From the NCBI GenBank assembly GCA_963814585.1, contig CAWFDF010000012.1, positions 224,001-288,000 on the forward strand: DNA of 64,000 nt, read 5' to 3'. The notes under the pieces are model-generated. The model worked only from the letters and a program-made list of their open reading frames with translations. It was not told the origin of the DNA and ran no database searches. A program made the translations under genes and the position numbers. Shown piece by piece: positions 24,409-64,000 of this stretch (the first letter of the stretch is position 1; each line of letters begins with the position of its first letter). This DNA is from an uncultured delta proteobacterium. GTDB lineage: Bacteria; Myxococcota; Myxococcia; Myxococcales; Anaeromyxobacteraceae.

Positions 24409-24996
24409 ATGAAGACGCCCGCCGCCGTCCTCGCCGTCGCCCTCGCGCTGCTCGCCGCCCCGGCCGCCCGCGCCCAGCCGGTCTCGGCGCGCTCCGGGCC
24501 GGACACCTACCTCCAGTTCAACCTGGGCGCGTTCCTGCCTCAGGCCAGCGACATCGACCGGCTCGACCCGGGCGTCGCGCTGTCCGGCACGTTCGGGGCG
24601 ATGTTCACGCCCAACGTCGGAGCCGAGGCGAGCGTGGGGTACTACCGCGCCGCCGCCACCGTGAACACGGTCCCGAGCGTCGACACCGCGCTGGGCGTCG
24701 TGCCGGTGCTGGTGAGCCTGCGGCTGGTGGCGCCCTTCAAGGCCATGGAGCTCTCGGCGCGAGCCGGCGCCGGCATCCACTTCGCGTCGCTCTACTCCAC
24801 CGCCACCATCGCCAGCGCCTACGACACCACCACCGCCTTCGGCTGGCAGCTGGGCGCCGGGGCGGCCTTCAAGCTCTCGCCCACCATGCTGGTGGGCCTG
24901 GACGTCCTGGGGACCTTCGCCGAGGCGAAGTTCAGCGGGATCAGCACCGGCCTCGACGGGATCACCGTCGCGGTGACGCTTGGTTACAGGCTCTAG
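24409..24996 (+). CDS. Small outer-membrane beta-barrel protein (OmpW/OmpA-barrel-like)
   Basis: RBS GGAGG, signal peptide ending ARA-Q, amphipathic strands, C-terminal LGYRL. Confidence 0.78.
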   Translation: MKTPAAVLAVALALLAAPAARAQPVSARSGPDTYLQFNLGAFLPQASDIDRLDPGVALSGTFGAMFTPNVGAEASVGYYRAAATVNTVPSVDTALGVVPVLVSLRLVAPFKAMELSARAGAGIHFASLYSTATIASAYDTTTAFGWQLGAGAAFKLSPTMLVGLDVLGTFAEAKFSGISTGLDGITVAVTLGYRL

Positions 24997-25007
24997 TGAG
25001 GTACGTC

Positions 25008-25976
25008 ATGCGAACCACGATCGTCGCGGGAGGCGTGGCGGCCCTGCTGACCGCCTGCGCCACCCCCTCGCAGCGCCCCACCACGGTGGAGTCGCCGGTG
25101 CCCCAGCAGGCCCAGGTGGCCGCGCAGCAGGCGCGCCAGGTGCCGGCGGCCCCCCGCTACAAGCGCAAGGTCGCCATCGGCCGCTTCACCAACGAGACCA
25201 ACTACGGCCGCTCGCTCCTCAACGACGCCGAGCTCGACCGCATCGGCAAGCAGGCCTCCGACATGCTGGCCTCGCGCCTGGTCATGTCCGGCCAGTTCAT
25301 CGTCCTGGAGCGCCCCGATCTCACCAAGGTGCAGCGCGAGCAGGCGCTCGGCGGCGCCGCCGGCCTGGTGGGCGCCGACACGCTCATCATGGGCTCGGTC
25401 ACCGAGTTCGGCCGCTCCATCGGCGGCAAGACCGGCTTCCTCTCCAGCACCAAGGAGCAGATCGCCAAGGCCAAGGTGGACGTGCGGCTGGTGGACACCA
25501 AGACCGGGCAGGCCTACTTCGCGGCCAACGGCGCCGGCGAGGCGCGCACCGAGGTCGGCGAGGTGGCCGGCTTCGGCAGCCGCTCCGAGTACGACGCCAC
25601 GCTCAACGACCGCGCCATCGCCGCCTCCATCTCCGACGTCATCGATCGCCTGGTCTCCAGGCTCGGCGACCGGCCCTGGCGCACCGACATCCTCGAGGTC
25701 CAGGGCCAGCAGGTCTTCATCAGCGGCGGCCGGAGCCAGGGCCTGAAGGCCGGCGACGAGCTGGCGGTCATGGAGTTCGGCCAGACCGTGAAGAGCGCCC
25801 AGTCCGGCTTCGACGTGACGCTGCCGCCCCGGCAGGTCGCGCTGCTGCGAGTCGCCTCGACGTTCGGCGACACCGAGACCAACGAGGGCGCCATCTGCGA
25901 CGTCACCTCGGGCACCGTCGACCGCGCCGCGGTCGGCAAGCTCTTCGTCGCCGAGAGGAAGGCAGGCCAGCCATGA
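25008..25976 (+). CDS. CsgG/HfaB-family lipoprotein
   Basis: Lipobox LTAC; KRKVAIGRF.NET, F.VLER, GAD.LI.GSVTEFG, KVDVRLVD.KTG; FlgT-like C-terminal extension. Confidence 0.8.
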   Translation: MRTTIVAGGVAALLTACATPSQRPTTVESPVPQQAQVAAQQARQVPAAPRYKRKVAIGRFTNETNYGRSLLNDAELDRIGKQASDMLASRLVMSGQFIVLERPDLTKVQREQALGGAAGLVGADTLIMGSVTEFGRSIGGKTGFLSSTKEQIAKAKVDVRLVDTKTGQAYFAANGAGEARTEVGEVAGFGSRSEYDATLNDRAIAASISDVIDRLVSRLGDRPWRTDILEVQGQQVFISGGRSQGLKAGDELAVMEFGQTVKSAQSGFDVTLPPRQVALLRVASTFGDTETNEGAICDVTSGTVDRAAVGKLFVAERKAGQP

Positions 25977-26269
25977 GGAAGCTCACCCTCGCCGCAGCCG
26001 TGGCCCTGGCCGCCTGCGCCGGACCGACCACCACCGTCACCACGGTGGACACCCGCCCGGCCCTGGCCATCTCCGGCGCGGCCTCCGGACTGACGCTGTT
26101 CGTGGACGGGGCCCCGGTCGGCGACCCCCGCCTCTACGACGGCAACCCCAACATCCTCCGCGTCGAGGCCGGCACCCATGACGTCGAGCTGCGCGACGGC
26201 GCCGGCGCGGTGGTCTTCCGGCAGCGGGTCTTCGTGGAGAGCGAGCTCAAGACCGTGGTGGTGCACTGA
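25973..26269 (+). CDS. Small lipoprotein with a PEGA-like beta domain
   Basis: Lipobox LAAC; L.VDG..VG...VEAGTHDVEL; ATGA and TGATG overlaps with neighbours. Confidence 0.7.
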   Translation: MRKLTLAAAVALAACAGPTTTVTTVDTRPALAISGAASGLTLFVDGAPVGDPRLYDGNPNILRVEAGTHDVELRDGAGAVVFRQRVFVESELKTVVVH

Positions 26270-26667
26270 TGGCGGTCGGCCGCAGCGTGGCGCCCCTGGC
26301 GCTGGCGCTCGCGGCCGGCGCCTGCGTCCCGTCCTCCCACTACCACTGGGGCGGCTACAACGAGTACCTCTACGCCCACTACCGTGCGCCGCAGGAGCGC
26401 GAGGCCTGGATCGAGGGGCTCAAGACCACCATCCTCGACGCCGAGCAGCAGGACGAGAAGGTGCCTCCGGGCGTCTACGCCGAGTACGGCTATGCGCTGT
26501 TCGAGGAGGGGAACACCGCCCAGGCCATCGTCTACTACCGGAAGGAGCAGGCGCTCTGGCCCGAGTCGCGCTTCCTGATGGAGAAGCTGGTCCGCAATGC
26601 CGAGCAGCGGGGGCGCCAGCCGAGGCCGCCCACCGAGGGGCCGGCCGGCGCGCTGGAGAAGTCGTGA
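26269..26667 (+). CDS. DUF4810-like lipoprotein
   Basis: Lipobox AGAC; Y.WGGY...LY, KVPPG.YAEYG, E..LWPES. Confidence 0.8.
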   Translation: MAVGRSVAPLALALAAGACVPSSHYHWGGYNEYLYAHYRAPQEREAWIEGLKTTILDAEQQDEKVPPGVYAEYGYALFEEGNTAQAIVYYRKEQALWPESRFLMEKLVRNAEQRGRQPRPPTEGPAGALEKS

Positions 26668-27350
26668 TCACCCCGGCCCGCCTGCACCTCGCCGGAGCGC
26701 TGGCCGCCCTGCTGGCCGGGTGCGTGACCGTCCCCACGCCGGACTACTCGAAGTTCCTGGCGGCCTCGCCGCGCTCCATCCTGGTGGTCCCGGTGGTGAA
26801 CAACACCGTCAACGTCGAGGCGGCCAACTACTTCCTCTCCACCATCCCGGTCCCGCTGGCGGAGCGCGGCTACTACGTCTTCCCGGTGAACCTGGTGAAG
26901 CGGCTGCTCGAGGACGACGGCCTCTCCGACGCCTCCCTGGTCCACGCCGCCGATCCGGTCCGCCTGGCCGCCCTCTTCGGCGCCGACTCGGTGCTCTACG
27001 TCACCGTCCAGCGCTGGGAGGCCCAGTACATCGTCGTCTCGACCACCGTCACGGTCGAGTTCACCTACCTCATCAAGGACGGGAAGACCGGCGACACGCT
27101 CTGGGAAGACCACCGGATCTCCACCTACTCGTCCGGCTCGGGGGGCGGGCAAGGCGGGGCGGCGAGCCTCATCGCCGCGATCGTGAACGCCGCGGTGACC
27201 AAGGCGTCGCCCAACTACATGCCGCTGGCCCGCCAGGCCAACGACCAGGCCATGGGGCCGCACGGCCGCGGGTTCCCGGTCGGGCCCTACCGGGCCGAGT
27301 ACGGCAAGGACTACCCGCGCCCGGCCCCGGCGCCCTCGGCACCACCCTGA
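26664..27350 (+). CDS. DUF799/GNA1162-like lipoprotein
   Basis: Lipobox LAGC; PRSILVVP.VN, PLAERGYYVFPV, FGADSVLYV, TG..LW, GPY. Confidence 0.82.
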   Translation: MITPARLHLAGALAALLAGCVTVPTPDYSKFLAASPRSILVVPVVNNTVNVEAANYFLSTIPVPLAERGYYVFPVNLVKRLLEDDGLSDASLVHAADPVRLAALFGADSVLYVTVQRWEAQYIVVSTTVTVEFTYLIKDGKTGDTLWEDHRISTYSSGSGGGQGGAASLIAAIVNAAVTKASPNYMPLARQANDQAMGPHGRGFPVGPYRAEYGKDYPRPAPAPSAPP

Positions 27351-27434: not shown

Positions 27435-29153
27435 TCAGAGCACCTTCACCATGCCGTGGTCGGTCCCGTCCGCGTCATGGGTGTGGATGGCGCAGGCCAG
27501 GCAGGGGTCGAAGGAGTGGATGGTGCGGAGCGCCTCGAGGGGCAGCTTGGGGTCGGCGATGGGGTTGCCCACCAGCGAGGCCTCGTAGGGGCCGGGCTGC
27601 TCCTTGCCGTCGCGCGGCCCGGCGTTCCAGGTCGAGGGCACCACGCACTGGTAGTTCTTGATCTTGCCGTTCTCCAGGACGCACCAGTGGGAGAGGGTCC
27701 CGCGCGGCGCCTCGTGGAAACCGACGCCCCGGAAGCTGCCGGTGGCCAGCTTGGGGTTGGGGTCCGCGAAGGTGGTGGTGTCGCCCTTGCCGATGTTCTC
27801 CATCAGCAGGCCCCAGTGCTTCTGCGTCAGCTCGGCCATCATGGCGGTGCGGATGGCGCGGGCCGCGTGGCGGCCGAGCGTGGAGTGGAGCATGGCCGGG
27901 GTGACGTCGATCTTGTGGATCGACTTGACGGTGGCGACGGCCGCCGACACCCACTTGACGGTGAGCGGGTCCTTGGTGAGGTAGCCGACCAGCACCTGGG
28001 CCAGCGGGCCGACCTGCATGGGCTTCCCGTCGAGCCGGGGCGCCTTGACCCAGCTGTACTTCCTGGGCGCCGGTGACTCGGCCTCCCACGCCCCGGAGAA
28101 CCTGGGGACGGTCTCCTCCTCCCACGGGCCCCGCTGCCAGTCGCCGTCGTAGTGGGAGTGGGCGATCGACTCGGTGACGTTGGCCTTGAGGAACTCGTCG
28201 TTCCAGCTGGTGATCTTCCGGACCTCGGGCTGGCCGGCCATGATGACGCCGCCGGGGAGGTCGAACCTGGTCATCTTGGCGTCGGTGGGGAGGTCGGGCA
28301 CGGCCAGGTAGTTGGTGACCCCGGCACCGTACTTGAACCACTCCGGGTAGAAGCCGGCCACCGCGGCCACGTCCACCAGGTAGCACTGGGTGACGAAGCC
28401 GCTGACCTCGTCGAGCAGCGCCTTGATCCGGTACAGCTTCTCCATGTTGAGGGCGGAGGGGCTGTCGAGGTTGATGGCGTTGGCCACGCCGCCCACCGCC
28501 AGGTTCTGGATGTGGGGCGTCTTGGAGCCGAGGATGGCCACGATCTGGTTGGCCTTGCGCTGGATCTCCAGGGCCTGGAGGTAATGGGCCACCGCCAGGA
28601 GGTTGACCTCCGGGGGGAGCCGCATGGCGGGGTGGCCCCAGTAGCCGTTCTGGAAGGGGCCGAGCTGGCCGGCCTTGACGAAGCCCTCCAGCCTGGCCTT
28701 CACGGCCGTCAGCTCCTTGGTCGAGTTGCCCGGCCAGCTGGAGATCGACTCGGCCAGGGCCGAGGTCTTGGCCGGATCGGCCTTGAGCGCCGCCACCACG
28801 TCGACCCAGTCCAGCGCCGACAGGTGGTAGAAGTGGACCACGTGGTCGTGCAGGGCGTGCGCCGAGATGATGATGTTGCGGATGAGCTGGGCGTTGAGTG
28901 GCACCTCGAGCCCCAGCGCGTTCTCCACGCTCCGCACCGAGGTGATGGCGTGCACCGTGGTGCAGACCCCGCAGATGCGCTGGGTGAAGGCCCAGGCGTC
29001 GCGCGCGTCCCGCCCCTGCAGGATGGTCTCGATCCCGCGCCACATGGTGCCGCTCGACCAGGCGTTCTTGACCACGCCGCCGTCGACCTCCACGTCGATG
29101 CGGAGGTGCCCTTCGATCCGGGTGATGGGATCGATCGTGATGCGCTGACTCAT
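27435..29153 (-). CDS. hybC: [NiFe]-hydrogenase large subunit (Hyd-2 type)
   Basis: TRIEGH, L1 RICGVC, L2 DPCLACAIH plus cleavable C-terminal extension. Confidence 0.93.
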   Translation of the reverse strand: MSQRITIDPITRIEGHLRIDVEVDGGVVKNAWSSGTMWRGIETILQGRDARDAWAFTQRICGVCTTVHAITSVRSVENALGLEVPLNAQLIRNIIISAHALHDHVVHFYHLSALDWVDVVAALKADPAKTSALAESISSWPGNSTKELTAVKARLEGFVKAGQLGPFQNGYWGHPAMRLPPEVNLLAVAHYLQALEIQRKANQIVAILGSKTPHIQNLAVGGVANAINLDSPSALNMEKLYRIKALLDEVSGFVTQCYLVDVAAVAGFYPEWFKYGAGVTNYLAVPDLPTDAKMTRFDLPGGVIMAGQPEVRKITSWNDEFLKANVTESIAHSHYDGDWQRGPWEEETVPRFSGAWEAESPAPRKYSWVKAPRLDGKPMQVGPLAQVLVGYLTKDPLTVKWVSAAVATVKSIHKIDVTPAMLHSTLGRHAARAIRTAMMAELTQKHWGLLMENIGKGDTTTFADPNPKLATGSFRGVGFHEAPRGTLSHWCVLENGKIKNYQCVVPSTWNAGPRDGKEQPGPYEASLVGNPIADPKLPLEALRTIHSFDPCLACAIHTHDADGTDHGMVKVL

Positions 29154-30367
29154 GGCGTCGCCCCTTGCTTGAGACCGGCCGGGACCTCACGCCGCGGAGC
29201 GGGCGTGACGCCGGCGAGGATTGGGAACTTGCGGACCACCAGGACGTAGATCACCGTCTCGGTGGCGATCAGCCCGAGGGTGACGAGGATCTCCACCAGG
29301 CTCGGGAAGTAGACCCAGCCGGTGCCGGGGTTGTAGGCCACCAGGAAGACGTCGATGCGGTAGATGGTGCCGCCCAGCATGGAGAGGAGCGCCCCCTGGA
29401 GCTGATGGTCGGGCCGAAGGTCCCTGGCGGTGGCCAGGAAGCGGACGGCCGCCATCAGGAGGATCACGGTCTCGGCCCAGAAGAAGAGGGCCATGCGCCC
29501 GGCGCTCAGGGTGAGGCCGATCTTGCCCTCCACCGCCAGGATGGCGAAGCGCACCACCACGAAGGCGACGATGACGACGCCCACGTACCGCCCCATGGTC
29601 GCCAGCAGCCGGTGCTCCAGGGGCCGATGGAGGGTCAGGCTGGAGAAGATGGACTCGAAGTAGATGACCCCGAAGCCCATCACGAAGGCGGTCATCAGGA
29701 AGAAGAGCGGGAGGAACCCGGTGTGCCAGAGCGGGTGGAGCTTGAGGCCCGCCATCATCATGAGCCCGCCCAGGCTGGACTGGTGCATGGTGGGCAGCAG
29801 GAGACCGAGGCCGACCAGGAAGGGCAGGGCTCGCTCGGCCCGCGGGTGCCAGCGCCGGGCGGTGGCCGCCAGCGAGGGATTCCGGCTCGCCGACAGCCCC
29901 TCGAGCCAGGCCGGAGAGAGCTCCAGGAAGAGCACGGTCACGTAGGCCATCATGCAGAGCGCCACCTCGAGGAGCACCGAGGTGCTGCTCCACTGGTGCG
30001 GCGACAGCGGGATGCGCCACATGGTCCAGTAGCGCCCCAGGTCGAAGGCCACCGCCACGCCGGCCACGCCGTAGCCGAGCAGGCTGGTGAGCAGGGCCGG
30101 GCGGACCAGCGGGTGGTAGCGCCCCTTGTTGAGGATGAAGACCAGGAAGGCCAGGACGTAGCCGCCGCTGGCCAGTCCGGTGCCGATCACCACGTCGAGG
30201 GCGATCCAGATGCCCCACGGGTAGCCGTCGCTCATGGCGGTGGCCGCCCCCAGCCCCTGGATGAAGCGGTACAGGCCGGCCACCGTCCCCAGCGCCCAGA
30301 GCACCAGCAGCGCCTTGACGGCCGGGGTGAGCAGCTTGCCTTCGACGGCCTGGGCGCGGACGGTCAT
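29150..30367 (-). CDS. hybB: Hydrogenase-2 membrane subunit (NrfD family)
   Basis: YPWGIWI..DV, GRYHPLVRPALL, DLGR.W, LPTMHQSSLG, LHPLWH. Confidence 0.92.
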   Translation of the reverse strand: MTVRAQAVEGKLLTPAVKALLVLWALGTVAGLYRFIQGLGAATAMSDGYPWGIWIALDVVIGTGLASGGYVLAFLVFILNKGRYHPLVRPALLTSLLGYGVAGVAVAFDLGRYWTMWRIPLSPHQWSSTSVLLEVALCMMAYVTVLFLELSPAWLEGLSASRNPSLAATARRWHPRAERALPFLVGLGLLLPTMHQSSLGGLMMMAGLKLHPLWHTGFLPLFFLMTAFVMGFGVIYFESIFSSLTLHRPLEHRLLATMGRYVGVVIVAFVVVRFAILAVEGKIGLTLSAGRMALFFWAETVILLMAAVRFLATARDLRPDHQLQGALLSMLGGTIYRIDVFLVAYNPGTGWVYFPSLVEILVTLGLIATETVIYVLVVRKFPILAGVTPAPRREVPAGLKQGATP

Positions 30368-31245
30368 CACTTCTCCTCCTGGCCGGCCGCGGCCGCGCGG
30401 TGGTTCTTCCAGGCCACGAAGGCGAAGGCACCGAACAGCGCCACCGGGGCGACGAAGCCCTGGTAGATGCCGTGCTGGATGGACTCCACCAGCGCCGGCG
30501 CCGGCTCCTTGCCGAGCGCCGGCAGCCCGAGGGGCCCGAAGCCGACCGGCGACAGGTAGAGGCAGGCGGTGCCGCCGCCCTCGGTCTCGCCGTAGACGCC
30601 GCCCTGGTAGGCCGAGGGGGTCGCCGCCAGCCGGCGCTTGGCCTCGGCCAGCAGGTCGGTCCGGCGGCCCGACACCACGGCGCCGCGCGGGCAGGCCTCG
30701 GAGCAGGCGCAGTCCTTGCCCTCGGGCCAGCGGTGGCGGCACAGCTCGCACTTGACGATCTTGGGGGAGGCCGAGGCCCACTCGAACTTCGGCACGTTGA
30801 AGGGGCAGGCGATCTGGCAGTTGCGGCAGCCGACGCACCGCTCCACGTCGTACTGCACCACCCCGCGCTTGCCCTTGTGCAGCGCGCCCATCATGCAGAC
30901 CGAGGCGCAGGCGGGGTCGGCGCAGTGCATGCACTGGGCCTTGAAGTAGCCGCCGCCGGTCTCGGTGCTCCACTGCTTGATGACCGTGAAGTTGGTGGCG
31001 TTGAGGTCCATCGGCGCGTCGTAGGGCGCGCCGCCGATCATGGCCACGCTGGGCGCCAGGTTGTTGGCCTCGCGGCACCTGGTGGAGCAGGCCCGGCACC
31101 CGATGCAGCGGGTGGCGTCGAAGAGGAGCCCCAGGTCGTCGGGGCCGTGCTGCTTCGGCGTGCGCGCCTCAGCCGGGGCCGCCACCGCCGCGCCGGCGGC
31201 CGCCGCGCCCAGGACCTTGAGCGCCCCGCGCCTGGTCATCGTCAT
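30367..31245 (-). CDS. hybA: Hydrogenase-2 ferredoxin-type subunit
   Basis: Tat signal RRGALK; CIGCRAC..C, CMHC..P.C..VC, CVGCRNCQIACP, CELC; C-terminal ESIQHGIY.GF. Confidence 0.92.
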   Translation of the reverse strand: MTMTRRGALKVLGAAAAGAAVAAPAEARTPKQHGPDDLGLLFDATRCIGCRACSTRCREANNLAPSVAMIGGAPYDAPMDLNATNFTVIKQWSTETGGGYFKAQCMHCADPACASVCMMGALHKGKRGVVQYDVERCVGCRNCQIACPFNVPKFEWASASPKIVKCELCRHRWPEGKDCACSEACPRGAVVSGRRTDLLAEAKRRLAATPSAYQGGVYGETEGGGTACLYLSPVGFGPLGLPALGKEPAPALVESIQHGIYQGFVAPVALFGAFAFVAWKNHRAAAAGQEEK

Positions 31246-32360
31246 GGCGCCTTCTCCTTCTCGGCACCTTCGGCCTTCTGGACCTCGACCGTCAGCTTGC
31301 GCGAGGCCACGTAGCCGGCGCCGGCCGCGGCGCCGACCACCAGGCCGGCCACGCCGACGGCGATGATGCTCTTCTCGCCCTGGGCCGGGTTCATGCCAGG
31401 GTAGGCCATGGGCGCGGTCGGCCTGTCGATGGGGAGGTTGGCGTGGATGGGGACGTTGAAGACGATCCCCTGCTCGGTGCAGCCGATGCACGGGTGGCCG
31501 GTGCCGATGGGCCAGGCGCCCGGGACCTCGCAGTAGTGGAGCAGCGAGCAGTTGGCGTGGGTCTGCGGCCCCTTGCAGCCGAGCTTGTAGAGGCACCAGC
31601 CGTTGCGGTGGCCTTCGTCGCCGAAGGCCTGCGCGAAGCGGCCGCTGTCGAAGTGGGCGCGGCGCGGGCAGTCCTCGTGGATGACCCGGCCGTAGGCGAA
31701 CTTGGGGCGGCCCTTGTCGTCGAGCGCCGGCAGCGTGCCGAAGGTGGCGAACTGCAGCACGGTGCCGAGCAGGTTGTAGGGGTTGGCCGGGCAGCCGGGG
31801 AGCGTGACCACCGTCTTCCCCTGGAGCGCCTGCGACACGCCGACGGCGCCGGTGGGGTTGGGCGAGGCGGACGGGACGCCGCCCCAGGAGGCGCAGGAGC
31901 CGATGGCGATGACCGCCGCCGCATCCTTGGCCACCCGGGTGAGCGTGTCGATGGCCTTCTCGCCGCCGACGTAGCAGTAGATGCCGTCGTCCTTGAGCGG
32001 GATGGAGCCCTCGACGATCAGCACGTACTTGCCCTTGTTCTCCTTCATGGTCGACTCGAGCGCCGCCTCGAACTGGTAGCCGGCGCCGGCGGCCAGGGTC
32101 TCGTGGTAGTCGAGCGAGATCAGGTCGAGGATCAGCTCGCCCAGGTCGGGCGCGTTGGCGCGCAGCAGCGACTCGGTGCAGCCGGTGCACTCCTGGAAGT
32201 GGAGCCAGATGACCGAGGGCTTCTTCCCCTTGGCCACCTTCTCGGCCATCTTCTCGCCGGCCCAGGCCGGCAGGCCCACCGCGGCCGCGGCGGCCGTGCA
32301 GACCTTCACGAAGTCTCGCCGGGAGAGGGCGGAGGTTTCCGCTGACACGGGGTGCGGCAT
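31242..32360 (-). CDS. hybO: [NiFe]-hydrogenase small subunit
   Basis: Tat motif SRRDFVK, ECTGCTES, GSCASWGG, PGCP, H..CPRR, CLYKLGCKGP, C-terminal TM. Confidence 0.93.
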   Translation of the reverse strand: MPHPVSAETSALSRRDFVKVCTAAAAAVGLPAWAGEKMAEKVAKGKKPSVIWLHFQECTGCTESLLRANAPDLGELILDLISLDYHETLAAGAGYQFEAALESTMKENKGKYVLIVEGSIPLKDDGIYCYVGGEKAIDTLTRVAKDAAAVIAIGSCASWGGVPSASPNPTGAVGVSQALQGKTVVTLPGCPANPYNLLGTVLQFATFGTLPALDDKGRPKFAYGRVIHEDCPRRAHFDSGRFAQAFGDEGHRNGWCLYKLGCKGPQTHANCSLLHYCEVPGAWPIGTGHPCIGCTEQGIVFNVPIHANLPIDRPTAPMAYPGMNPAQGEKSIIAVGVAGLVVGAAAGAGYVASRKLTVEVQKAEGAEKEKAP

Positions 32361-32440
32361 TTTGATCCTCCTGGGGCGGGCCACGGTGAAACCCGCCTGA
32401 TGTTCCGGCCATGATCGCCCGAATGGGGTGGTCCTCTGCA

Positions 32441-32454
32441 TTGACCGCCATCAA
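32441..32454. promoter_or_regulatory. FNR/Crp-family binding site upstream of the hyb operon
   Basis: TTGAC-CGCC-ATCAA matches TTGAT-N4-ATCAA at 9 of 10 positions, ~80 bp upstream of the hybO ATG in a locally AT-richer patch. Confidence 0.65.
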
Positions 32455-32639: not shown

Positions 32640-34070
32640 TCAGTTCCCGACCGGCTCCGGCGTCGGCGACGGCGCCGACGCTGGCGTGGCCCGGCCGAGC
32701 TGTCCGTCGGCGTTGCTCCCCCAGCACTTCACCACGCCGGCCCCGCCCACGTCCGCCAGGACGCAGGTGAAGGCGCGCCCGGCCGCGGCGGCGAGGGGCG
32801 CGCCCCCGAAGGCGACCTCGAGCTCGGCCACGGCGGGACCCGACGGCGCCGCGCCACACTGCGCCTGGTCGTTGCGGCCGGCGCACTTCATGGTCACGTC
32901 GCCCGCCTTCGAGGAGCAGCTGAAGGCCTCGCCGGCTGCGAAGGTGCCGGCCGCCTGGCCGTTGTCGATCCGGTCGGCCGGCACGGGCTGCAGCACCGGC
33001 GTCAAGGTGGCGCGGTTCCCCATCTCGCCCTCCCCGCCCGAGCCCCAGCAATGGAGCGGGGTCCCGACGCCGGCGACGCTGGCGCTGGCGCAGGCATGCT
33101 TGCGGCCGACGGCCACCTTCAGGGCCGGGCCCGGGAGCGGCACCACCACCGGCGTCGCCTTCGGCGAACGCGGCGTGACCGGGTCGCCGGAGCCGGTCTG
33201 TCCCTCCAGGTCGAGTCCCCAGCAGGCAGCTGCCCCGGCGGCCACGGCGCAGGTGTCGTCCCCGGCCGCGGCGAGCGCCGTCGCGCCGCCGCTGACGAGC
33301 GAGGGGAACGGCGTGGCGTGAGGCGCGAAGTCGCCGGTGCCGAGCTGGCCGAGGTCGTTGGCTCCCCAGCACCAGACCGCGGCGCTGGCGCCAGCGCCGG
33401 CGATGGCGCAGGCGTGGCGCGCGCCGAGGGCCAGCGCGGTGGCGCCGGTCAGGGCGGTCGAGACGATGCCGGCGCGGGCCGCCGTGGAGCCGTCGCCGAG
33501 CTGCCCGGCCTCGTTGGCCCCCCAGCACCGGACCGTCCCATCCTGCACGGCGCAGGTGTGGCGGGCGCCGGCCGCCACCGCGGAGATCCCCGATGCGAGG
33601 ACCACGACCGGGCGCACCGACCTGGGCAGGCCGGCGGCCGCCGGGCCGAGCTGGCCGGCGTCGTTCTTGCCCCAGCAGAGGAGCCCGCCGTCACCGGTCA
33701 CGGCGCAGGCGTGGTCGTCTCCGGCCGCCACCGCGACGGCGCGGCAGCAGCCGCTGGCGCAGGCGAGCCACCCGGCCTGGCAGGCCTGGCCGCAGGCGTA
33801 CCCGCCGCCGGCCCCCGGCTCGCAGACCGGCGTGGCGTTGGGATCGCTGGCCGTGCAGGTCGAGCAGGCGTCGCCGCAGGCGTCGATCGACTGGGCCACG
33901 CAGGCGGCGCCGCAGACGTGCTGGGGAGGATCGCAGCTCGGGCCGCCGGGCGTGAGGGGAGGCACGCCGGCCGCGTCGTAGAGGGTGCCGTCGCAGGCCC
34001 CGACGAGGAGGCCGGCCAGGGCGGCGGCGAGGAGGCGCACGGCGGGCGGACGAGCGAGGCGCACGGTCAC
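32640..34070 (-). CDS. Lipoprotein with Cys-rich stalk and RCC1/BLIP-II-like repeats
   Basis: Lipobox LVGAC; repeated (A/G)G..H(A/T)CA....CWG.N..GQLG units; N-terminal Cys-rich segment. Confidence 0.85.
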   Translation of the reverse strand: MTVRLARPPAVRLLAAALAGLLVGACDGTLYDAAGVPPLTPGGPSCDPPQHVCGAACVAQSIDACGDACSTCTASDPNATPVCEPGAGGGYACGQACQAGWLACASGCCRAVAVAAGDDHACAVTGDGGLLCWGKNDAGQLGPAAAGLPRSVRPVVVLASGISAVAAGARHTCAVQDGTVRCWGANEAGQLGDGSTAARAGIVSTALTGATALALGARHACAIAGAGASAAVWCWGANDLGQLGTGDFAPHATPFPSLVSGGATALAAAGDDTCAVAAGAAACWGLDLEGQTGSGDPVTPRSPKATPVVVPLPGPALKVAVGRKHACASASVAGVGTPLHCWGSGGEGEMGNRATLTPVLQPVPADRIDNGQAAGTFAAGEAFSCSSKAGDVTMKCAGRNDQAQCGAAPSGPAVAELEVAFGGAPLAAAAGRAFTCVLADVGGAGVVKCWGSNADGQLGRATPASAPSPTPEPVGN

Positions 34071-35566
34071 ATCCCGTAGAGGACGAGCAGCGTGAGGTTG
34101 GCGACGGGGCGGACCACGCGGTCCCCGTTCAAGGTGAAGACCTTGCCACCCCCGGTGAGGTCGAGGGCGGCGCGGACCGGGCCGATGGGCAGCGAGCCGC
34201 GCAGGGCCAGCCCGCCCGAGAGGTCGCCGGTCTCGAAGTGTCGCCCGTCGGGGAGCGACTGGGTGTTCCAGCCGCCGCCGAGGTCGACGCCCCCCTCGAG
34301 GAGCGCCCGGCCCCCCACCACCGGGAGCAGCGCGCTCAGGCCGCCGCCGACGCGCGCGTACCCGTAGGTGAGCGACTGGTCGGTGACGTCGCCGACGGCG
34401 TAGTCGCCGTGGACCACCAGGGCCACCGGCCCGACCTCGCGCCGCAGCCCGACCCGGAAGCCCGGGACCGCGGCCGTCCCCGGCAGGCCGGTGGCCTGCA
34501 GGCCGGCGCCCACCCAGATCTCCGTCGGCAGCGGCCCACCCTTGGAGCGGGCCACCTCGTAGCGGGTGGGAACCAGCTTCGGAAGCGCGCGGGTCTCGCC
34601 GCGGGCCAGCGACACCTCCCCGCGGGCGCGACCGTCCCGGGCGCGCCGCTCCACCCCGTAGGCGCCGGCCGGCAGGGCCAGGGCCAGCTCGGTGGCGCCG
34701 GCCGGCACCTCGGCGGTGAGCCCGAACGGCCCGCGCAGGACGTAGAGCGCGCCGGGATCCACCGGCACCAGCAACCTGGCCTCGGCGCGGCGGAGATCGG
34801 CCAGCACCACGTCCCCGCGGCCGGACATGCGGAAGTCGTAGGTGGGGTGCTGGGCGCCGGTGCGCGTCGCCGTGGTGTCGGAGACGGTCGCCTGCGAGGT
34901 GTAGCGGAAGGCCTCGGCCAGCGTGACCCGGCCGTCGCCGTCGGCGTCGCCGGCGCCGCGCAGGGCCACCTCCAGGTGGTGGGTGAAGAAGCTGCCGCCG
35001 ATGGCCGCCGACTCCTGGGCGGCCTCCCCGACCGCCGTCGAGGCGATGAAGGCGGTCCCCCGAACCTCGTCGGAGGGCAGGACGAAGTCCAGGCGGGCCT
35101 CGGCGCGCGCCCCCTTGACCTGGGTGAGCGCACCGGCCTCGCAGGCGTCGACCACCACCACCTTGGCCTCGGCGCTGGAGCGGGCCGCCGCCTCCTTGAG
35201 CTCGTCGTAGCCGACGCGCTCGCCTCCGAACTCGAGTCCGCCGGCGCCGGCGTGGCCGGAGTAGAAGACCAGCAGGAGGGTGCGCTCGCCGCCGGCGCGG
35301 GCCGCCTGGACCCGGGCCTCGGCGCGGGCCAGCGCCTCGCGGAAGGCCCCCGCGGTCGGGCCGCGGAGCAGCTCGACCCCGTCCCGGGAGAAGTCGCCGA
35401 GCTCGAGGAGGGCCCGCTCGAAGCGCTCGGCGTCCTTCTCGGCGAACCAGAGCCTGGGCCTCCCCGCCGCCCCCTGGTTCATGCCGGCCACCACGGCGAC
35501 GCGTCCGGGCGCCGCGCCGACGGCGAGCGGCAGGGCGAGGAGCAGGGTGGCGAGGAGGCGGCGCAT
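34067..35566 (-). CDS. Exported caspase-family (peptidase C14) protein with probable C-terminal beta-barrel
   Basis: Signal peptide; His-Cys dyad motifs FYSGHA and VVDACEAG; AQES...GSFFTHHL; DADGDGRVTLAE; amphipathic beta strands at the C-terminus. Confidence 0.85.
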   Translation of the reverse strand: MRRLLATLLLALPLAVGAAPGRVAVVAGMNQGAAGRPRLWFAEKDAERFERALLELGDFSRDGVELLRGPTAGAFREALARAEARVQAARAGGERTLLLVFYSGHAGAGGLEFGGERVGYDELKEAAARSSAEAKVVVVDACEAGALTQVKGARAEARLDFVLPSDEVRGTAFIASTAVGEAAQESAAIGGSFFTHHLEVALRGAGDADGDGRVTLAEAFRYTSQATVSDTTATRTGAQHPTYDFRMSGRGDVVLADLRRAEARLLVPVDPGALYVLRGPFGLTAEVPAGATELALALPAGAYGVERRARDGRARGEVSLARGETRALPKLVPTRYEVARSKGGPLPTEIWVGAGLQATGLPGTAAVPGFRVGLRREVGPVALVVHGDYAVGDVTDQSLTYGYARVGGGLSALLPVVGGRALLEGGVDLGGGWNTQSLPDGRHFETGDLSGGLALRGSLPIGPVRAALDLTGGGKVFTLNGDRVVRPVANLTLLVLYGM

Positions 35567-35570
35567 GCCC

Positions 35571-36323
35571 TCAGGGCCTCTTCTCGAGGAGCAGGGAGTC
35601 GAGCGCCGTGCCCGCGGGGAGCCCGGCGATGGCGGTGGCGCGCCGGACCGCCTCCGGCCCGGGGCCCCCCGCGGCGGTGCGCACCGCGGCCTCCGCGTCG
35701 GCCCAGGCCCATGGCGCCGGCGTGCAGATGGCGACGACCCGCTCCGGCCCCGGCTGGCCGTCGAGCACCGCGCCGCCGGGCAGGTCGGCGCTGCGCTCCA
35801 GGAAGGCCCCGCCCTCGCCCTGAGCCGGGTAGAGGCGCGAGACCTGGCCGCGGGCGTCGAGGGAGAGCAGCCAGAGGTGGCACGGGCGGGAGGCCCGGAC
35901 GCGGAAGCGGAGCGCCGCGCCGGCCTGGACGGCGACGCCGTCGACGGCCAGCCTCGACGTCGTCCCCTCCTGGACGAAGACCGCGAGCCCGAGGGCGCCG
36001 CCGCCCTTGACGCCGAGGTAGTCGTCGGGCGGCGCGGCAGGGCGCACCAGCAGGAAGACGGCGGCGGCGACGGCGAGCACGGGGACCAGGACCAGCCTGC
36101 GGCGCCAGGCGCCGAGGGCGGACCAGCGGGAGCCGGCGGCGGCCTCGACGGCCTCCACCGTGGCGGGGTAGACGAAGCGGGCGAAGTCCTCGCCCTGCCG
36201 CTGCATGGTGGTCAGCCGGGCGGCGCAGGACGGGCAGGCGGACAGGTGGCCGGCGATGGGAGAGCGCTCCGGCGCCAGCAGGTGGCGCTCCAGGGCGAGT
36301 TCGGACGGGCAGCGGGTGGTCAT
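35571..36323 (-). CDS. Zinc-binding (ZAS/zf-HC2) transmembrane anti-sigma factor with extracytoplasmic DUF4384-like domain
   Basis: C...HLSACPSC (Hx3Cx2C), one TM, then beta-rich G..LRFRV...LD..G.VS.LYP domain; ATGA overlap with sigma gene. Confidence 0.8.
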   Translation of the reverse strand: MTTRCPSELALERHLLAPERSPIAGHLSACPSCAARLTTMQRQGEDFARFVYPATVEAVEAAAGSRWSALGAWRRRLVLVPVLAVAAAVFLLVRPAAPPDDYLGVKGGGALGLAVFVQEGTTSRLAVDGVAVQAGAALRFRVRASRPCHLWLLSLDARGQVSRLYPAQGEGGAFLERSADLPGGAVLDGQPGPERVVAICTPAPWAWADAEAAVRTAAGGPGPEAVRRATAIAGLPAGTALDSLLLEKRP

Positions 36324-36814
36324 GGCCGGCTCCGGTCGACGTGGTGACGCGCCAGGTCCAGGAAGCGAGCCAGCTTGCGGGCCACGGTGCGGCGCGAGAT
36401 CCCCAGCACCTCGGCCACCTCCTCCTGCTCCATGCCGTCGACCAGCACGCCGACGGCCACCGTCTGGGTGGTGGTGTCGAAGCGGGCCAGGACCTGCTGG
36501 ACCAGCTGCCGGTCCGGCACCGGGTCGGCTCCGGCCGAGGCGGCCAGCTCCAGCGGCGGGGCCTCGAGGCCCTCCCCGCGGCGCGTGGCGTTGCGCCGGT
36601 GGTTGAGGCAGTGGTTGGTGGCGACCCGGTAGATCCAGGGGAGCACCGTCTCGCGATCCTCCAGCTTGGCGGTGTCACGGATGAGCCTCATGAAGACCTC
36701 CTGCGTCGCGTCCTTGGCGGCCTCCGGGTCCTTCAGGATCCGGAGGCAGCGGCGGTAGACCACCGGGCCGAAGGTCCGGTACAGCTCCGCCGCCCTGGTG
36801 TGGTGCTCGCCCAC
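36320..36814 (-). CDS. ECF sigma-70 family RNA polymerase sigma factor
   Basis: Region 2 A.DATQEVF..WIYRVATNHCLN; region 4 GMEQEEVAEVLGISRRTVARKL; AAGGAGG RBS before GTG 36814. Confidence 0.9.
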   Translation of the reverse strand: MGEHHTRAAELYRTFGPVVYRRCLRILKDPEAAKDATQEVFMRLIRDTAKLEDRETVLPWIYRVATNHCLNHRRNATRRGEGLEAPPLELAASAGADPVPDRQLVQQVLARFDTTTQTVAVGVLVDGMEQEEVAEVLGISRRTVARKLARFLDLARHHVDRSRP

Positions 36815-36953
36815 GTCCAGCCTCCTTCCCAGGTGACACCCGTCACGCCCGGCGAGTGCCAGACCTTTCGACAGCATCTCCGGAAAGCCCGCCACTTCCC
36901 AGTACCCCGGTCGCAGCGGGCCGGCCCGCGCGCCCGGCCGGCTCCAGGCGCCA

Positions 36954-36995
36954 CGAAACCCCGGGAGCGGCCCTGGCGGCGGGCCGTTCCCGGGG
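36954..36995 (-). terminator. Intrinsic terminator-like hairpin after the DUF5666-like gene
   Basis: CCCCGGGAGCGGCCC / GGGCCGTTCCCGGGG near-perfect stem followed on the minus strand by TTTCG. Confidence 0.55.
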
Positions 36996-37021
36996 TCGAG
37001 GAGCGCCGGGGGGAGCGGGCG

Positions 37022-38488
37022 CTACCGGTCGCCTTCGAGCTCGACCTCCCTGGCGGAGAGCACCGGGTCGACCAGGGCCCCCGGGTCCTTGCCGCGGGCC
37101 TTCACCACGGTCTGGCCCGCGGTCACGGCGGCGAAGAAGTCGGCCGGGGTCATCGACGGCCCATCCACGCCGGAGACCTCGGAGTGGCCTCGGAAGCCGC
37201 CGGCCTCGACCGTGCCGGTGGCGACGGTCTTGCCCAGGATGGTCAGCGTGCCGGCCGCGGCGTCCTTGGCGGTGACCACGCCGCGGATGATGGGCCGGTC
37301 GTCGCTGGACCGCTCCACGCGGGTGGCCACCAGCGAGGTGCCGTCGCGGCCTGGGGCGCCGCGGACCTCGACGAGGTCGCCGGCGGCCAGCGAGGCCACG
37401 GCGTCACGCTGCTCGGTGAGGGCGTCGACCGTGACCAGCACGCCGTTGACGCGGAGCGTGCCGACGCCGGCGGCGTCGACGCTCAGGCCGGCGGCCGCAC
37501 CCTGCAGCAGCGCGCTGGCTCGGAAGGAGACCTTGTGCGCCGCCAGCACGCCGTCGGCGCCGAGCCGCCCCTCGGCCTCCACCTTGACGCCGGGGAGGAG
37601 ATCGCCGGGCAGGCCGCCGCTCCAGGTGGTGCTGGCCGACGTGGTCACCGTGGTGCCGGCCAGCACGAAGGAGGCGGCCGTGCCGGAGGTGACGATCCCC
37701 TCGACCTCGGTCTCACCGCCGACGACGCCGGGCAGCCGATCCTCGATCGAGATGGAGGCCGCCTCGATGACCTGGCCAGGCTGCACCGGCTTCCGGGAGC
37801 GGACCTCCACCAGGTCACCCTGGGCGAGGCCGGCGGGGATGACGGCGCCCCCGAGCAGGTTGACGGTGTAGGTGCCGTCGGCGCCGGCGTCCGGCGAGGT
37901 CTTCAGGGTGAAGCCGCCGGCGGCGAGGTTGGAGACGATCCCCTTCACCTCGAAGTCGTCGCTGGTCCCGGCCAGCCTGTCGATGCGGGTGGCGCGCAGC
38001 CCGCCGCGATCGTCGGCCACGCCGGAGACGCGGACCCGCTGGCCCGCGTCCACCGAGCCGAGCCGGGCGACGTCGTCCTCGAAGTGGGTGCTGTCGTCGA
38101 CGCGGACGACCAGGCCGCCCACCGAAAGGGTGGTGGCGTCCCTGGACGCGACCTTCCCCTTCACGGCGTCCTCGAACTCGATCTCGAGACCCTCGCCGTG
38201 CCGCCCGCTGGCGTCGGCGTGGGCCTTGACCCGCACCACCATCCCGTCGCGCAGCTCGGACTCGGGCCGCTCGACTCCCTCGATCTTCACGGTGGCCGGC
38301 GTGGCGATGGAGACCCCGTTCACCTCGATCTGGCCGGCCGACCGGGCGGTGATGGCCCCCTGCAGGTAGAGGTTGGGCATCGAGCCGACCGGGGCTGGCG
38401 CTCCGGAGGGGTTCGAGGTGGTGCCGCCGCAGGCCACGAGCAGGGCGACGGCGGCGAGGAGCAGGGATCGGGAAGCGGTGGTCTTCAT
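37022..38488 (-). CDS. DUF5666-like repeat lipoprotein
   Basis: Lipobox LVAC; about six repeats of (V/L).G.(V/I)...(F/L).V.G..V....T....L..G..V.V.G....(A/G)..(I/V). Confidence 0.78.
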   Translation of the reverse strand: MKTTASRSLLLAAVALLVACGGTTSNPSGAPAPVGSMPNLYLQGAITARSAGQIEVNGVSIATPATVKIEGVERPESELRDGMVVRVKAHADASGRHGEGLEIEFEDAVKGKVASRDATTLSVGGLVVRVDDSTHFEDDVARLGSVDAGQRVRVSGVADDRGGLRATRIDRLAGTSDDFEVKGIVSNLAAGGFTLKTSPDAGADGTYTVNLLGGAVIPAGLAQGDLVEVRSRKPVQPGQVIEAASISIEDRLPGVVGGETEVEGIVTSGTAASFVLAGTTVTTSASTTWSGGLPGDLLPGVKVEAEGRLGADGVLAAHKVSFRASALLQGAAAGLSVDAAGVGTLRVNGVLVTVDALTEQRDAVASLAAGDLVEVRGAPGRDGTSLVATRVERSSDDRPIIRGVVTAKDAAAGTLTILGKTVATGTVEAGGFRGHSEVSGVDGPSMTPADFFAAVTAGQTVVKARGKDPGALVDPVLSAREVELEGDR

Positions 38489-38571
38489 GGGTGGCGCCTT
38501 TCGGGCTGGGTGTCTGGACTGTTGACACCGGGCCCCGGCCGCCACGGGCACGCCCCAGGAGGGGCGCGAGC

Positions 38572-54976: not shown

Positions 54977-55592
54977 TCAGATCAGGTAGATGAGCGGGAA
55001 GACGAAGATCCAGATCAGGTCGACCAGGTGCCAGTAGAGTCCCGCCAGCTCGACCGGCACGTGGTACTGCGCGTCGTACTTGCCGAGCCAGGCCCTGGCC
55101 CCGATGATCCCCAGCACCGTCATGCCGATCAGCACGTGGATGGCGTGCAGGCCGGTGATGAGGAAGTAGAGGGTGAAGAAGAGCGATCCGCCCGAGCCGG
55201 CGATGGGGCCGCCGTAGAACTGGCCGGGCAGCTCGGCGTGGAGGAAGTGGTGGCGGTACTCGACCCCCTTCAGGACCATGAAGACCATGCCCATGGCGAT
55301 GGAGGCGCCGAAGAGCAGGCCGGTGCGCCGGTTCTTCCCCTGGGCGATGGCGTCCAGCCCCATGGCCACCGTGAAGGAGCTGGAGACCAGCACGAAGGTG
55401 TTGACGCCACCCAGCCAGGTCTCGAGCCCGCGCGAGGCCTGCGAGAAGGCGTCGGCGTAGAGGAAGCGGTAGACGCCGTAGGCGGCGAAGAGGGCGGTGA
55501 AGAGCAGGATCTCGGTGGCCAGGAAGAGCCACATGCCGAGCCGCTGGGCCTGGCCCTGCTTCTCGAGGCTCTCGAAGTGGTGGGCGACGGCG

Positions 55593-55600
<8 letters not shown>
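54977..55600 (-). CDS. coxC: Cytochrome c oxidase subunit III
   Basis: GMWLFLATE..LF, NT.VL..SS, TGLH.IHV, GLYWHLVD.IWI. Confidence 0.93.
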
Positions 55601-57216
<1,616 letters not shown>

Positions 57217-57239
<23 letters not shown>

Positions 57240-58269
57240 AGACCGGGCCCTCCGACGGCCCGGCGGTGACGGCCGGGGTCCTGAGCGACTTGATGTACTC
57301 GACGACGGCGGCGACCTCGGGAGGCGTCATCCGCCCCTGGAAGGTCGGCATGACGTTCTGGTAGCCGGCCACCAGCTGGGCGGCGGGGTCCATCATCGAC
57401 CGGGTCAGGTAGGCCTCGTCGGCGGTGATGACCTCGCCGGTGGTGAGCTTCTCGTTCCGGCCGTAGAGGTCGATGAAGGTCGGCCCGATGTGGCGCGAGC
57501 CGTCCACCGAGTGGCACTTCAGGCAGCCCTGGTCGGCCGCGACGCGCCGCCCCTGATCGAGGATGGAGGACCCGGGGAGGCCCCGCTCGGCGGCGGTGAG
57601 GGCGGCGTCCTGGGCCCGGGCCTCGCCGCGGCGCTGGTCGGCCAGCCAGGCGTCGAACTCGGCGGCCGGCATCACCACCAGCTCGGCCAGCATGCCGGAG
57701 TGGGAGAGGCCGCAGTACTCGGCGCAGAAGACCTGGTAGCGGCCGGGCGTCTCGGGCTGGAACCAGGTCTGCGTGTAGCGCCCCGGGAGCGCGTCCAGCT
57801 TGAGGCGCAGCTCCGGCACGTAGAAGGAGTGGATGACGTCGCGCGAGGTGATGAGCAGGCGCACCGGCCGGCCGGCCGGAACCCGCAGCACGTCGAGCGA
57901 GGACGGCCCCCCCTGGTAGGCGAACTTCCACATCCATTTCTTGCCCTGCACGAAGACGTCCATGGCGCCGGGCGGAGGCTGGGTGGTCTCCACGAACTGC
58001 GGATAGCCGATGGCGAACCAGAGCAGGAAGAAGGCCAGCGGCACGCCCACGAAGACCGCCTCGTGCCAGTGCCCGGGCTGCACCTCGGGGGTGGCCTCGC
58101 CTTCCTGCCGCCGCCGGTAGCGGATCATGAAGACCAGCGCGGTGGCGAAGATGAGGAGCCCCGCCACCATGGTGGTGATGATCACGAAGTAGTGGAGCCC
58201 ATCCACGTCGCGGGCGTGCTGCGACAGCTGGGGCGGGAGGAAGAGCAGCTTGCGGAGGAGCTCGTTCAT
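57217..58269 (-). CDS. coxB: Cytochrome c oxidase subunit II with fused cytochrome c (caa3)
   Basis: CuA ligands DVIHSF and CAEYCGLSHSGM; C-terminal CLKCH heme motif and MP. Confidence 0.94.

Positions 58270-63350: not shown

Positions 63351-63354
<4 letters not shown>
61933..63354 (-). CDS. actC: Alternative complex III quinol-binding subunit (NrfD family)
   Basis: [58 protein letters not shown]. Confidence 0.93.

Positions 63355-64000
<646 letters not shown>

Follow-up and report, generated by a model that had tools for sequence, protein, structure and literature searches.

Operons that join a sigma-70 factor to a metacaspase were surveyed in 2012 (Asplund-Samuelsson et al. 2012, PMC3501461): M. 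xanthus was reported to have four, and operons built in the same way were noted for Anaeromyxobacter, Haliangium, Sorangium, Ralstonia and Fibrobacter. In the DdvS/DdvA system of M. xanthus, a periplasmic caspase-fold domain of DdvA was proposed as the site-1 protease acting on the juxtamembrane linker, and RseP was shown to act at site 2 (PMC11506125, PMC6061681). This is the one periplasmic caspase-fold site-1 step that has been proposed, and it is unproven for lack of a signal. In the type III-E craspase system, the C-terminal domain of one group of Csx30 proteins is DUF4384 (bioRxiv 10.1101/2022.08.17.504292). The plant metacaspase AtMC4 is triggered by Ca2+ to cleave itself at an inhibitory Lys in a linker (bioRxiv 10.1101/2020.03.09.983940). 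Here we analysed a stretch of 64,000 nucleotides from an uncultured member of the Anaeromyxobacteraceae (contig CAWFDF010000012.1, positions 224,001 to 288,000), which is called the window and whose positions are used for all coordinates. It holds an operon for a sigma factor of the extracytoplasmic function (ECF) type, an anti-sigma factor, a caspase and a lipoprotein. The operon is real and probably represents a form of regulated-proteolysis ECF control; the sigma-70/metacaspase operons of 2012 are very probably the same family. From sequence comparison, we consider it probable that the caspase cleaves itself, leaves its outer-membrane barrel, makes the site-1 cut in the anti-sigma factor and frees the sigma factor.

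The operon and its caspase

Four coupled genes on the minus strand were confirmed, encoding an ECF sigma factor, an anti-sigma factor with a zinc-binding (ZAS) domain, a transmembrane (TM) helix and DUF4384, a C14 caspase and an RCC1 lipoprotein.

36320..36814, minus strand: ECF sigma factor, 164 aa (Pfam Sigma70_r2 and TIGR02937)
35571..36323, minus strand: anti-sigma factor, 250 aa, with ZAS domain (H26/C30/C33), one TM helix (about 75-93), flexible linker and immunoglobulin (Ig)-like DUF4384 domain (110-250) (Pfam, sequence and structure model)
34067..35566, minus strand: caspase, 499 aa, with signal peptide, caspase domain (20-260), beta-sandwich (263-327) and predicted eight-stranded outer-membrane barrel (346-499) (Pfam, AlphaFold model and fold search); key residues of the caspase domain are H105, C142, D45, D140, S103 and E185, with an EF-hand-like loop at 207-218
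32640..34070, minus strand: RCC1 lipoprotein, 476 aa (Cys26), with a short conserved peptide, a Cys-rich region and a seven-blade RCC1/BLIP-II-like propeller (Pfam, motifs and fold matches)

The preliminary description of this DNA, made from its letters, had reported these genes and their tight coupling, and all of the open reading frames were present as claimed. The sigma and anti-sigma genes overlapped by ATGA, a 4-bp gap preceded the caspase gene, and the caspase and lipoprotein genes overlapped by GTGA. The protein identities also held: Sigma70_r2, H26-x3-C30-x2-C33 with a TM helix, H105 and C142, and a lipobox (LVGA-C26) with 28 Cys and RCC1 repeats. Signal peptides and lipoboxes were called by eye and from hydropathy. 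The sigma gene starts with GTG at 36814, preceded by GGAGG. The host genome carried a single copy each of the anti-sigma, caspase and RCC1 genes, and the nearest relatives bore the name Anaeromyxobacter. The preliminary description had missed the predicted barrel of the caspase and its EF-hand-like loop, as well as the Lys-Gly and promoter-like motifs and the association with a DUF5666 gene.

The sigma factor matched Sigma70_r2 (E 2e-15), region-4 profiles and TIGR02937 (69 bits, cut-off 42.9). It is short and holds sigma2 and sigma4 only, as is usual for ECF factors. The anti-sigma factor, encoded by the next gene, had Hx3Cx2C in an N-terminal helical domain and one TM helix, as in class I ZAS proteins. 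H26, C30 and C33 were invariant in 105 close relatives, and zf-HC2 clusters were matched in the Atlas. It would bind and inhibit the adjacent sigma factor. In the structure model, residues 94-105, which come after the helical ZAS domain and the TM helix, form a linker of low confidence, and an Ig-like domain starts near residue 110. DUF4384 was matched at residues 132-203 (Pfam, E 1.8e-8); this profile was too insensitive for a survey of the family. A fold search with the ectodomain returned generic Ig-like folds alone (best Z 9.0). Longer, fused anti-sigma forms were looked for among 8000 candidates and none was found, which is weak evidence. In one anti-sigma factor (P0241, 758 aa), the ZAS-like start was duplicated and DUF4384-like domains stood four in tandem, without a K/R-G before any of them.

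The caspase domain was identified mainly by its fold. Peptidase_C14 (PF00656) was above cut-off at residues 22-245 (E 2.4e-8), and a sequence search against solved structures gave weak matches alone (E 0.06-0.9). The fold search was decisive: AtMC4 was the best match (Z 20.5, root-mean-square deviation 2.9, 207 residues aligned), and the paracaspase MALT1 reached Z 18.6. The caspase fold and the His-Cys dyad placed the protein in family C14 of clan CD, with the metacaspase- and orthocaspase-like enzymes. We aligned 88 caspases (27-87% identity) and 78 anti-sigma factors (median 27%). H105, C142, D140, E181 and E185 were invariant in all 88 caspases, and D45 was kept in 84. D140, two residues before the catalytic Cys (Cys-2), corresponds to Asp462 of MALT1 and Asp137 of AtMC4, and D45 aligned with the Asp of the metacaspase 'ND' motif. 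An acidic S1 pocket was thus recognized, D45 and D140 being matched by alignment and spacing and E185 by eye. Since D140 and D45 match the acidic pocket of AtMC4 and MALT1, a basic P1 residue is predicted. The EF-hand-like loop DADGDGRVTLAE sits between two helices, and its strict pattern was present in 147 of 181 non-redundant relatives. The caspase is a putative active protease that may process itself.

The AlphaFold model (mean predicted local distance difference test score 84) placed a helix (335-341) between the beta-sandwich and the barrel, and eight barrel strands at 348-498. The barrel resembled NspA (Z 16.9), OmpW (Z 15.2) and OmpA (Z 15.1). Its strands were antiparallel, a signal peptide was present, and the C-terminus (Y-G-M; family consensus Y-G-F) carried an aromatic signal. 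The middle domain of the caspase had no named match in the Atlas (score 0.75). Small eight-stranded barrels have both termini in the periplasm and a lumen too narrow for threading a domain. The protease is therefore predicted to be periplasmic and tethered to the outer membrane, and the caspase domain would hang into the periplasm from the barrel. The preliminary description had taken the protein for an exported caspase with intact His and Cys motifs; the motifs stood, and free export gave way to the modelled tether. The caspase and the anti-sigma ectodomain were both predicted to be periplasmic by models and fold search, in agreement with the shared compartment that its proposal needed. In four loci (L175, L178, L180 and L181), barrel-less caspases of about 417 aa and of the Arg type described below were divergent from their anti-sigma genes.

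A basic-Gly motif shared by caspase and anti-sigma factor

Three Lys-Gly sites were located in the two proteins.

36003..36008, minus strand: K106-G107 of the anti-sigma factor, within its periplasmic linker; predicted site-1 cleavage site (78 of 78)
35111..35116, minus strand: K151-G152 of the caspase, in the loop that follows the catalytic Cys; predicted site of self-cleavage (88 of 88)
34538..34543, minus strand: K342-G343 of the caspase, where the periplasmic part joins the barrel; predicted site of release (from conservation, with the position taken from the model)

K106-G107 was conserved in 100% of the anti-sigma factors, compared with 92-94% for the zinc ligands, and gave the sole invariant columns in 47 anti-sigma factors at 22-47% identity. 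The motif lies in the low-confidence linker outside the anti-sigma fold, at a median of 12 residues from the TM helix. A count made without alignment found K-G in 77 of 78 linkers but in 16 of 227 windows further down. Of 150 independent cluster representatives, 149 carried it as well. The one without it has four DUF4384-like domains, which indicated that the DUF4384 fold does not need the motif. In the caspases, position 342 was Lys in 78 and Arg in 8 of 88, and G343 was kept in 83; the loop that holds K151-G152 (144-169) had low model confidence. Among the window proteins, K-G occurred twice in the caspase and once in the anti-sigma factor, and the RCC1 lipoprotein had neither K-G nor R-G. 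Depletion of K-G and R-G elsewhere in the caspase was looked for and gave no clear signal.

In distant families, R-G took the place of K-G in both proteins. We started from 338 caspase loci, of which 181 remained after a 75% identity filter; 159 had an anti-sigma factor and 146 could be scored on both sides. The residue of the caspase loop agreed with that of the anti-sigma factor in 143 of the 146 non-redundant pairs (78 K/K, 65 R/R, 3 discordant). The first K/R-G within 3-33 residues of the TM helix was scored, or else K/R-S. This rule was fixed after the first results, as an earlier one (first K/R followed by G or S) had read R-S-K-G linkers wrongly, with 11 mismatches. In a tree from which the caspase loop was left out, the caspase residue changed three times, and each change was matched by the anti-sigma factor, which changed six times. 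In some clades the caspase loop read R-P-R-D or P-R-K-x-G (L285, L294, L311; L170, L179, L342, L343), and the anti-sigma factor kept K-G or R-G. Related lipoprotein caspases (L187-L190) had K-G just after the lipid-anchored Cys plus a C-terminal barrel. K-G again stood between anchor and enzyme, and K-G was kept in all three with a detected anti-sigma factor.

A column scan for the Lys or Arg type picked out S103, two residues before the catalytic His (His-2). Ser was present there in 76 of 78 caspases of Lys anti-sigma factors compared with 18 of 72 of Arg ones. Inside a mostly-Arg clade it was found in 9 of 9 caspases paired with Lys anti-sigma factors and in 17 of 71 others; among those nine are two of the discordant three, and Thr is the residue in their close Arg relatives. 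Ser84 of AtMC4, at the same position, hydrogen-bonds the P1 Lys (bioRxiv 10.1101/2020.03.09.983940). These patterns were suggestive of a His-2 pocket residue that tracks Lys versus Arg in the anti-sigma factor. R203 (window about 34960) also followed the Lys type, being present in 88% of the close family and 4 of 5 Lys reversions and rare in Arg types, and is a possible second specificity position.

The triad itself was conserved, which the proposal of the preliminary description required. Of 301 genomes drawn from the phylum, 231 had a caspase relative (E<=1e-15), the host genome and the unpublished G196 included. We picked 60 myxobacterial loci by hand for diversity from the 150 matches listed. 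Sigma factor, anti-sigma factor and caspase were collinear in 49 of them and rearranged in 2. From the anti-sigma side, 47 of 50 matches covering the ectodomain in five genomes adjoined a caspase (by eye). Genomes held many paralogous sets, each with its own sigma factor. No caspase relative was found on plasmids.

Lipoproteins, promoter and neighbouring genes

The RCC1 lipoprotein had a lipobox (LVGA-C26), 28 Cys and seven CWG-type repeats; WD40_RLD was above cut-off, and UVR8 and BLIP-II were matched, identifying an RCC1/BLIP-II propeller. RCC1 was present in 30 of 44 closer loci, three of which had it upstream on the opposite strand, and was absent from loci L069-L134. Some lipoprotein was the fourth gene of 41 of 64 close-family caspases with enough flank, compared with 10 of 248 background genes; 22 further caspases had too little flank or were short. 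By a looser lipobox rule, a lipoprotein followed 42 of 55 barrel caspases that had an anti-sigma factor but 1 of 7 that lacked one. RCC1 therefore marked the closest clade only, with other lipoproteins elsewhere. The propeller lipoprotein named as part of the module in the preliminary description was confirmed as a lipoprotein in fourth position, whereas RCC1 turned out to be one of many interchangeable bodies.

In 16 four-gene loci, median identity was 70% for the catalytic domain, 41% for the barrel and 39% for the lipoprotein; all parts other than the catalytic domain lay at 39-59%. In the nearest clade, a hydrophobic-hydrophobic-D/E/T peptide just after the lipidated Cys was found in 17 of 22 lipoprotein rows with three unrelated bodies (one locus was counted twice, and the pattern was chosen after inspection). 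The same peptide occurred in 1 of 109 other lipoproteins of the genome. The fast divergence of barrel and lipoprotein, with the shared peptide, fitted a swappable lipoprotein sensor that is likely to dock on the barrel. In loci L022, L023, L032, L033 and L041, small cupredoxin-like lipoproteins and YceI proteins recurred beside the operon, two of them with the promoter motif, which is a hint of a metal- or lipid-related output.

The region upstream of the operon held the following features.

36835..36861, minus strand: predicted ECF promoter TGGCAC-N15-GGTGTC, 20 nt before the sigma start (motif conservation and genome scan)
36957..36997, minus strand: GC-rich hairpin followed by a short U tail, perhaps a terminator (z -4.89)
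37022..38488, minus strand: DUF5666-repeat lipoprotein, 488 aa, probable extra regulon member (Pfam DUF5666 x4)
38522..38551, minus strand: weaker promoter-like motif copy before the DUF5666 gene (10.5 bits)

The motif TG(G/T)C(A/C)C-N15-GGTGT, with seeds picked by eye, was found upstream of the sigma gene in 18 of 35 loci at <=1 mismatch, compared with 0.25 expected. The window site was the best of the genome (23.5 bits; next 16.8) with that site left out of training. Thirteen genomes of the same genus gave 28 exact matches and 3 for a reversed control. The motif also preceded neighbouring genes, nearly all for lipoproteins: 10 of 19 tested starts exceeded 14 bits, one of them that of the RCC1 gene that is relocated in L022. 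A score of 10 bits was reached by 0.17% of 3000 random 160-nt windows. These results suggested that the sigma factor may read this motif and thereby regulate itself, and the regulon looks small and envelope-directed. DUF5666 homologues stood beside the operon in 9 loci (tandem, divergent or downstream), and the upstream DUF5666 gene probably belongs to the same regulon. A sigma-54 reading of TGGCAC was ruled out by eye, as there was no -12 TTGC and TGTCCC variants were frequent.

The hairpin that the preliminary description had called terminator-like was supported as a hairpin, with none of 200 shuffles as stable. Its terminator character was weak: just three U follow it, and a terminator scan did not call it. 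The fold of the whole 221-nt intergenic region was unremarkable (z -1.38), and the local hairpin alone stood out.

A [NiFe]-hydrogenase cluster lies directly downstream of the operon (27435-32441, minus strand), with a small subunit carrying a twin-arginine translocation signal, an Fe-S protein, a membrane subunit and the large subunit. It is probably a mere neighbour: it adjoined the operon in loci L001 and L002 and was absent beside more distant loci. Beyond it is a cluster of genes for exported proteins or lipoproteins (24980-27350, plus strand); by eye, one of them encodes a small beta domain of PEGA-like type. At 55001-64000, GC content fell to 0.66 and both GC and AT skew were positive, unlike the remaining window.

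Proposed mechanism, alternatives and known systems

The mechanism that we favour would run across the periplasm. The lipoprotein would dock on the barrel via its N-terminal peptide and sense a ligand. Sensing, perhaps with Ca2+ at the EF-hand-like loop, would trigger cuts at K151 for activation and at K342 for release. Release from the barrel should be needed because K106 is only about 12 residues from the inner membrane, by a geometry argument. The freed enzyme would cut K106|G107 and shed DUF4384, and RseP, for which the genome has two genes, would cut the remaining stump. From TG(G/T)C(A/C)C-N15-GGTGT, the freed sigma factor would then transcribe the operon that encodes it, together with a few lipoprotein genes nearby. 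The caspase is thus predicted to take the site-1 role of DegS or PrsW, ahead of RseP.

A dedicated site-1 caspase had already been put forward in the preliminary description, as a system for which it knew no mechanistic account. The conserved triad, the invariant dyad and acidic pocket, the predicted periplasmic location of both partners, and the basic-Gly motif that tracks the caspase motif and a pocket residue gave the role genuine, though indirect, support. The sigma-metacaspase linkage and the caspase-fold site-1 proposal for DdvA are already in print.

Several observations weigh against this mechanism. The barrel anchor is not universal: of 77 classified members of the distant family, 9 had barrels and 33 had helical anchors, 11 were short forms and 24 were of other kinds. 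Nine of the 60 diverse caspases had no sigma factor within 3.5 kb. In one subfamily, six of seven K-G anti-sigma factors had no caspase within about 4.5 kb (for one, a contig end shortens the flank on one side); a lone caspase 44-49% identical to those of that subfamily was present elsewhere in 4 of 5 genomes searched, and in the fifth no such partner was found. The pairs at L200, L277 and L341 were discordant. The K/R co-switch amounts to 2-3 independent contrasts, so that it cannot reach significance in a sign test. The Ser103 link, over four independent pairs, averaged 1.9 in the same direction, 0.2 opposite and 1.9 without difference, which was not significant. The second caspase site agreed less, 17 of 84 close-family members being scored R by a crude rule, and a shuffled linker window still held K/R-G 42% of the time. 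Conservation alone does not separate cleavage from pseudo-substrate binding.

This last point leads to the strongest alternative, which we regard as unlikely. The caspase could bind the Lys-Gly of the anti-sigma factor as a pseudo-substrate and shield it, until a signal breaks the contact and a general protease of the Prc or DegS type cuts site 1. The co-variation of motif and pocket would be explained too, and catalysis could serve self-release alone. There are also precedents: the cleaved periplasmic domain of the Pseudomonas outer-membrane transducer FoxA binds and protects FoxR (PMC11637429), and DdvA dyad mutants had no phenotype at rest (PMC11506125, PMC6061681). However, the dyad never varies, and of all parts the catalytic domain evolves most slowly (70% median identity compared with 39-59%). 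Cleavage would also be expected wherever an active protease holds a flexible linker with an ideal P1 Lys.

It is more doubtful still that the caspase does not act on the anti-sigma factor, the basic-Gly motifs being cut by a different periplasmic protease, trypsin- or gingipain-like and shared, or being mere flexible turns. Lys and Arg systems coexist in one genome, each following its own caspase, and the His-2 pocket link and the lone caspases of the same subfamily point to a cognate enzyme. Five other ZAS anti-sigma factors of the same genomes were judged by eye, and four were without the motif (those of L194, L195 and L207 and the second of L203), whereas L205 has K-G. What remains in its favour is that K-G is kept in anti-sigma factors without an adjacent caspase, that the motif stands at a domain edge and that independent contrasts are few.

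Equally improbable is a caspase that is a sigma-induced effector, processing envelope proteins or killing the cell with the anti-sigma cut as secondary feedback: its predicted sigma-dependent promoter, the existence of lone caspases and the autolytic role proposed in the 2012 survey (PMC3501461) would suit it, but it leaves unexplained why the sole invariant residues of the anti-sigma factor match the motif and pocket of the enzyme, and the caspase, anti-sigma factor and lipoproteins had no PADLOC match, the RCC1 lipoprotein has no K/R-G, and each of the many paralogous sets has its own sigma factor.

We return to the self-releasing caspase as the preferred reading. As a general statement, we propose tentatively, and at somewhat less than even odds, a widespread myxobacterial class in which barrel and swappable lipoprotein form a receptor whose own caspase domain releases itself, crosses the periplasm and cleaves one Lys-Gly or Arg-Gly bond, activating the cognate ECF sigma factor. 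To our knowledge, most bacterial caspase homologues have no known substrate. The present family points to an enzyme, a substrate, exact bonds (K151, K342 and K106), a pocket residue that tracks Lys or Arg and a reporter promoter. A caspase relay across the cell envelope would be an undescribed signalling route. If it is true, bacteria would have a caspase relay from receptor to transcription, often with ten or more paralogous channels per genome and a cleavage code readable in the sequence, and caspases would gain a signalling role across the envelope that is not cell death. With relatives in 231 of 301 genomes, such a relay would then account for a good part of the myxobacterial ECF sigma factors that are still unassigned.

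The literature search, which covered few subscription papers, found no mechanistic description, no separate barrel-anchored C14 protease and no K/R-G motif. The text of the 2012 survey names no anti-sigma factor, barrel, lipoprotein, motif or mechanism for its operons (PMC3501461). Judged by group descriptions only, the present sigma factor resembles ECF216 and ECF25 (Casas-Pastor et al. 2021, PMC7826278). ECF216 is confined to Myxococcales, with a ZAS and one-TM anti-sigma factor and with EF-hands and a carboxypeptidase-regulatory-like domain nearby; its promoters were called not conserved, unlike those found here, and the part of the supplement consulted does not mention a caspase. ECF25 anti-sigma factors have a zinc domain and/or DUF4384, and 16% of the group is from Deltaproteobacteria.

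In the type III-E system of Csx29, Csx30 and RpoE (bioRxiv 10.1101/2022.08.17.504292), a caspase-like protease, Csx29, cuts an anti-sigma-like, sigma-binding protein, Csx30, near its C-terminal domain. Craspase differs in being cytoplasmic, RNA-triggered, of the CHAT family (TPR-CHAT), specific for cleavage after Met and linked to CRISPR, with Cas7-11 in its context. The present caspase has a signal peptide, its locus has hydrogenase and SPFH genes as neighbours, and PADLOC found no match for the caspase, the anti-sigma factor or the lipoproteins. FoxA/FoxR/FoxI signalling (PMC11637429) shares an outer-membrane barrel whose N-terminal periplasmic domain is cleaved off and acts on the anti-sigma factor, and an ECF sigma factor that induces the barrel gene. 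FoxA is a TonB-dependent receptor whose periplasmic domain is not a protease, whereas eight strands and a catalytic dyad are predicted here. The large receptor and FecR-type anti-sigma factor of TonB-dependent cell-surface signalling are replaced by this small barrel and a DUF4384 ectodomain. AtMC4 and MALT1 (bioRxiv 10.1101/2020.03.09.983940, PMC4357240) share the caspase fold and the acidic S1 pocket; they are eukaryotic and cytosolic, lack a barrel and are not linked to a sigma factor.

DdvS/DdvA resembles the present system in its autoregulated ECF sigma factor and its single-pass ZAS anti-sigma factor (PMC11506125, PMC6061681). It differs in the fusion of TPR-CHAT to the anti-sigma factor, in its promoter (GTAA-n16-CGT) and in its CBASS/CRISPR output. 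In the window, protease and anti-sigma factor are encoded by separate genes, and the anti-sigma factor has a 140-aa Ig-like ectodomain. The protease, a C14 enzyme in its own right for which an outer-membrane barrel is predicted, was matched by the DdvA CHAT domain at Z 10.5 and by AtMC4 at Z 20.5.

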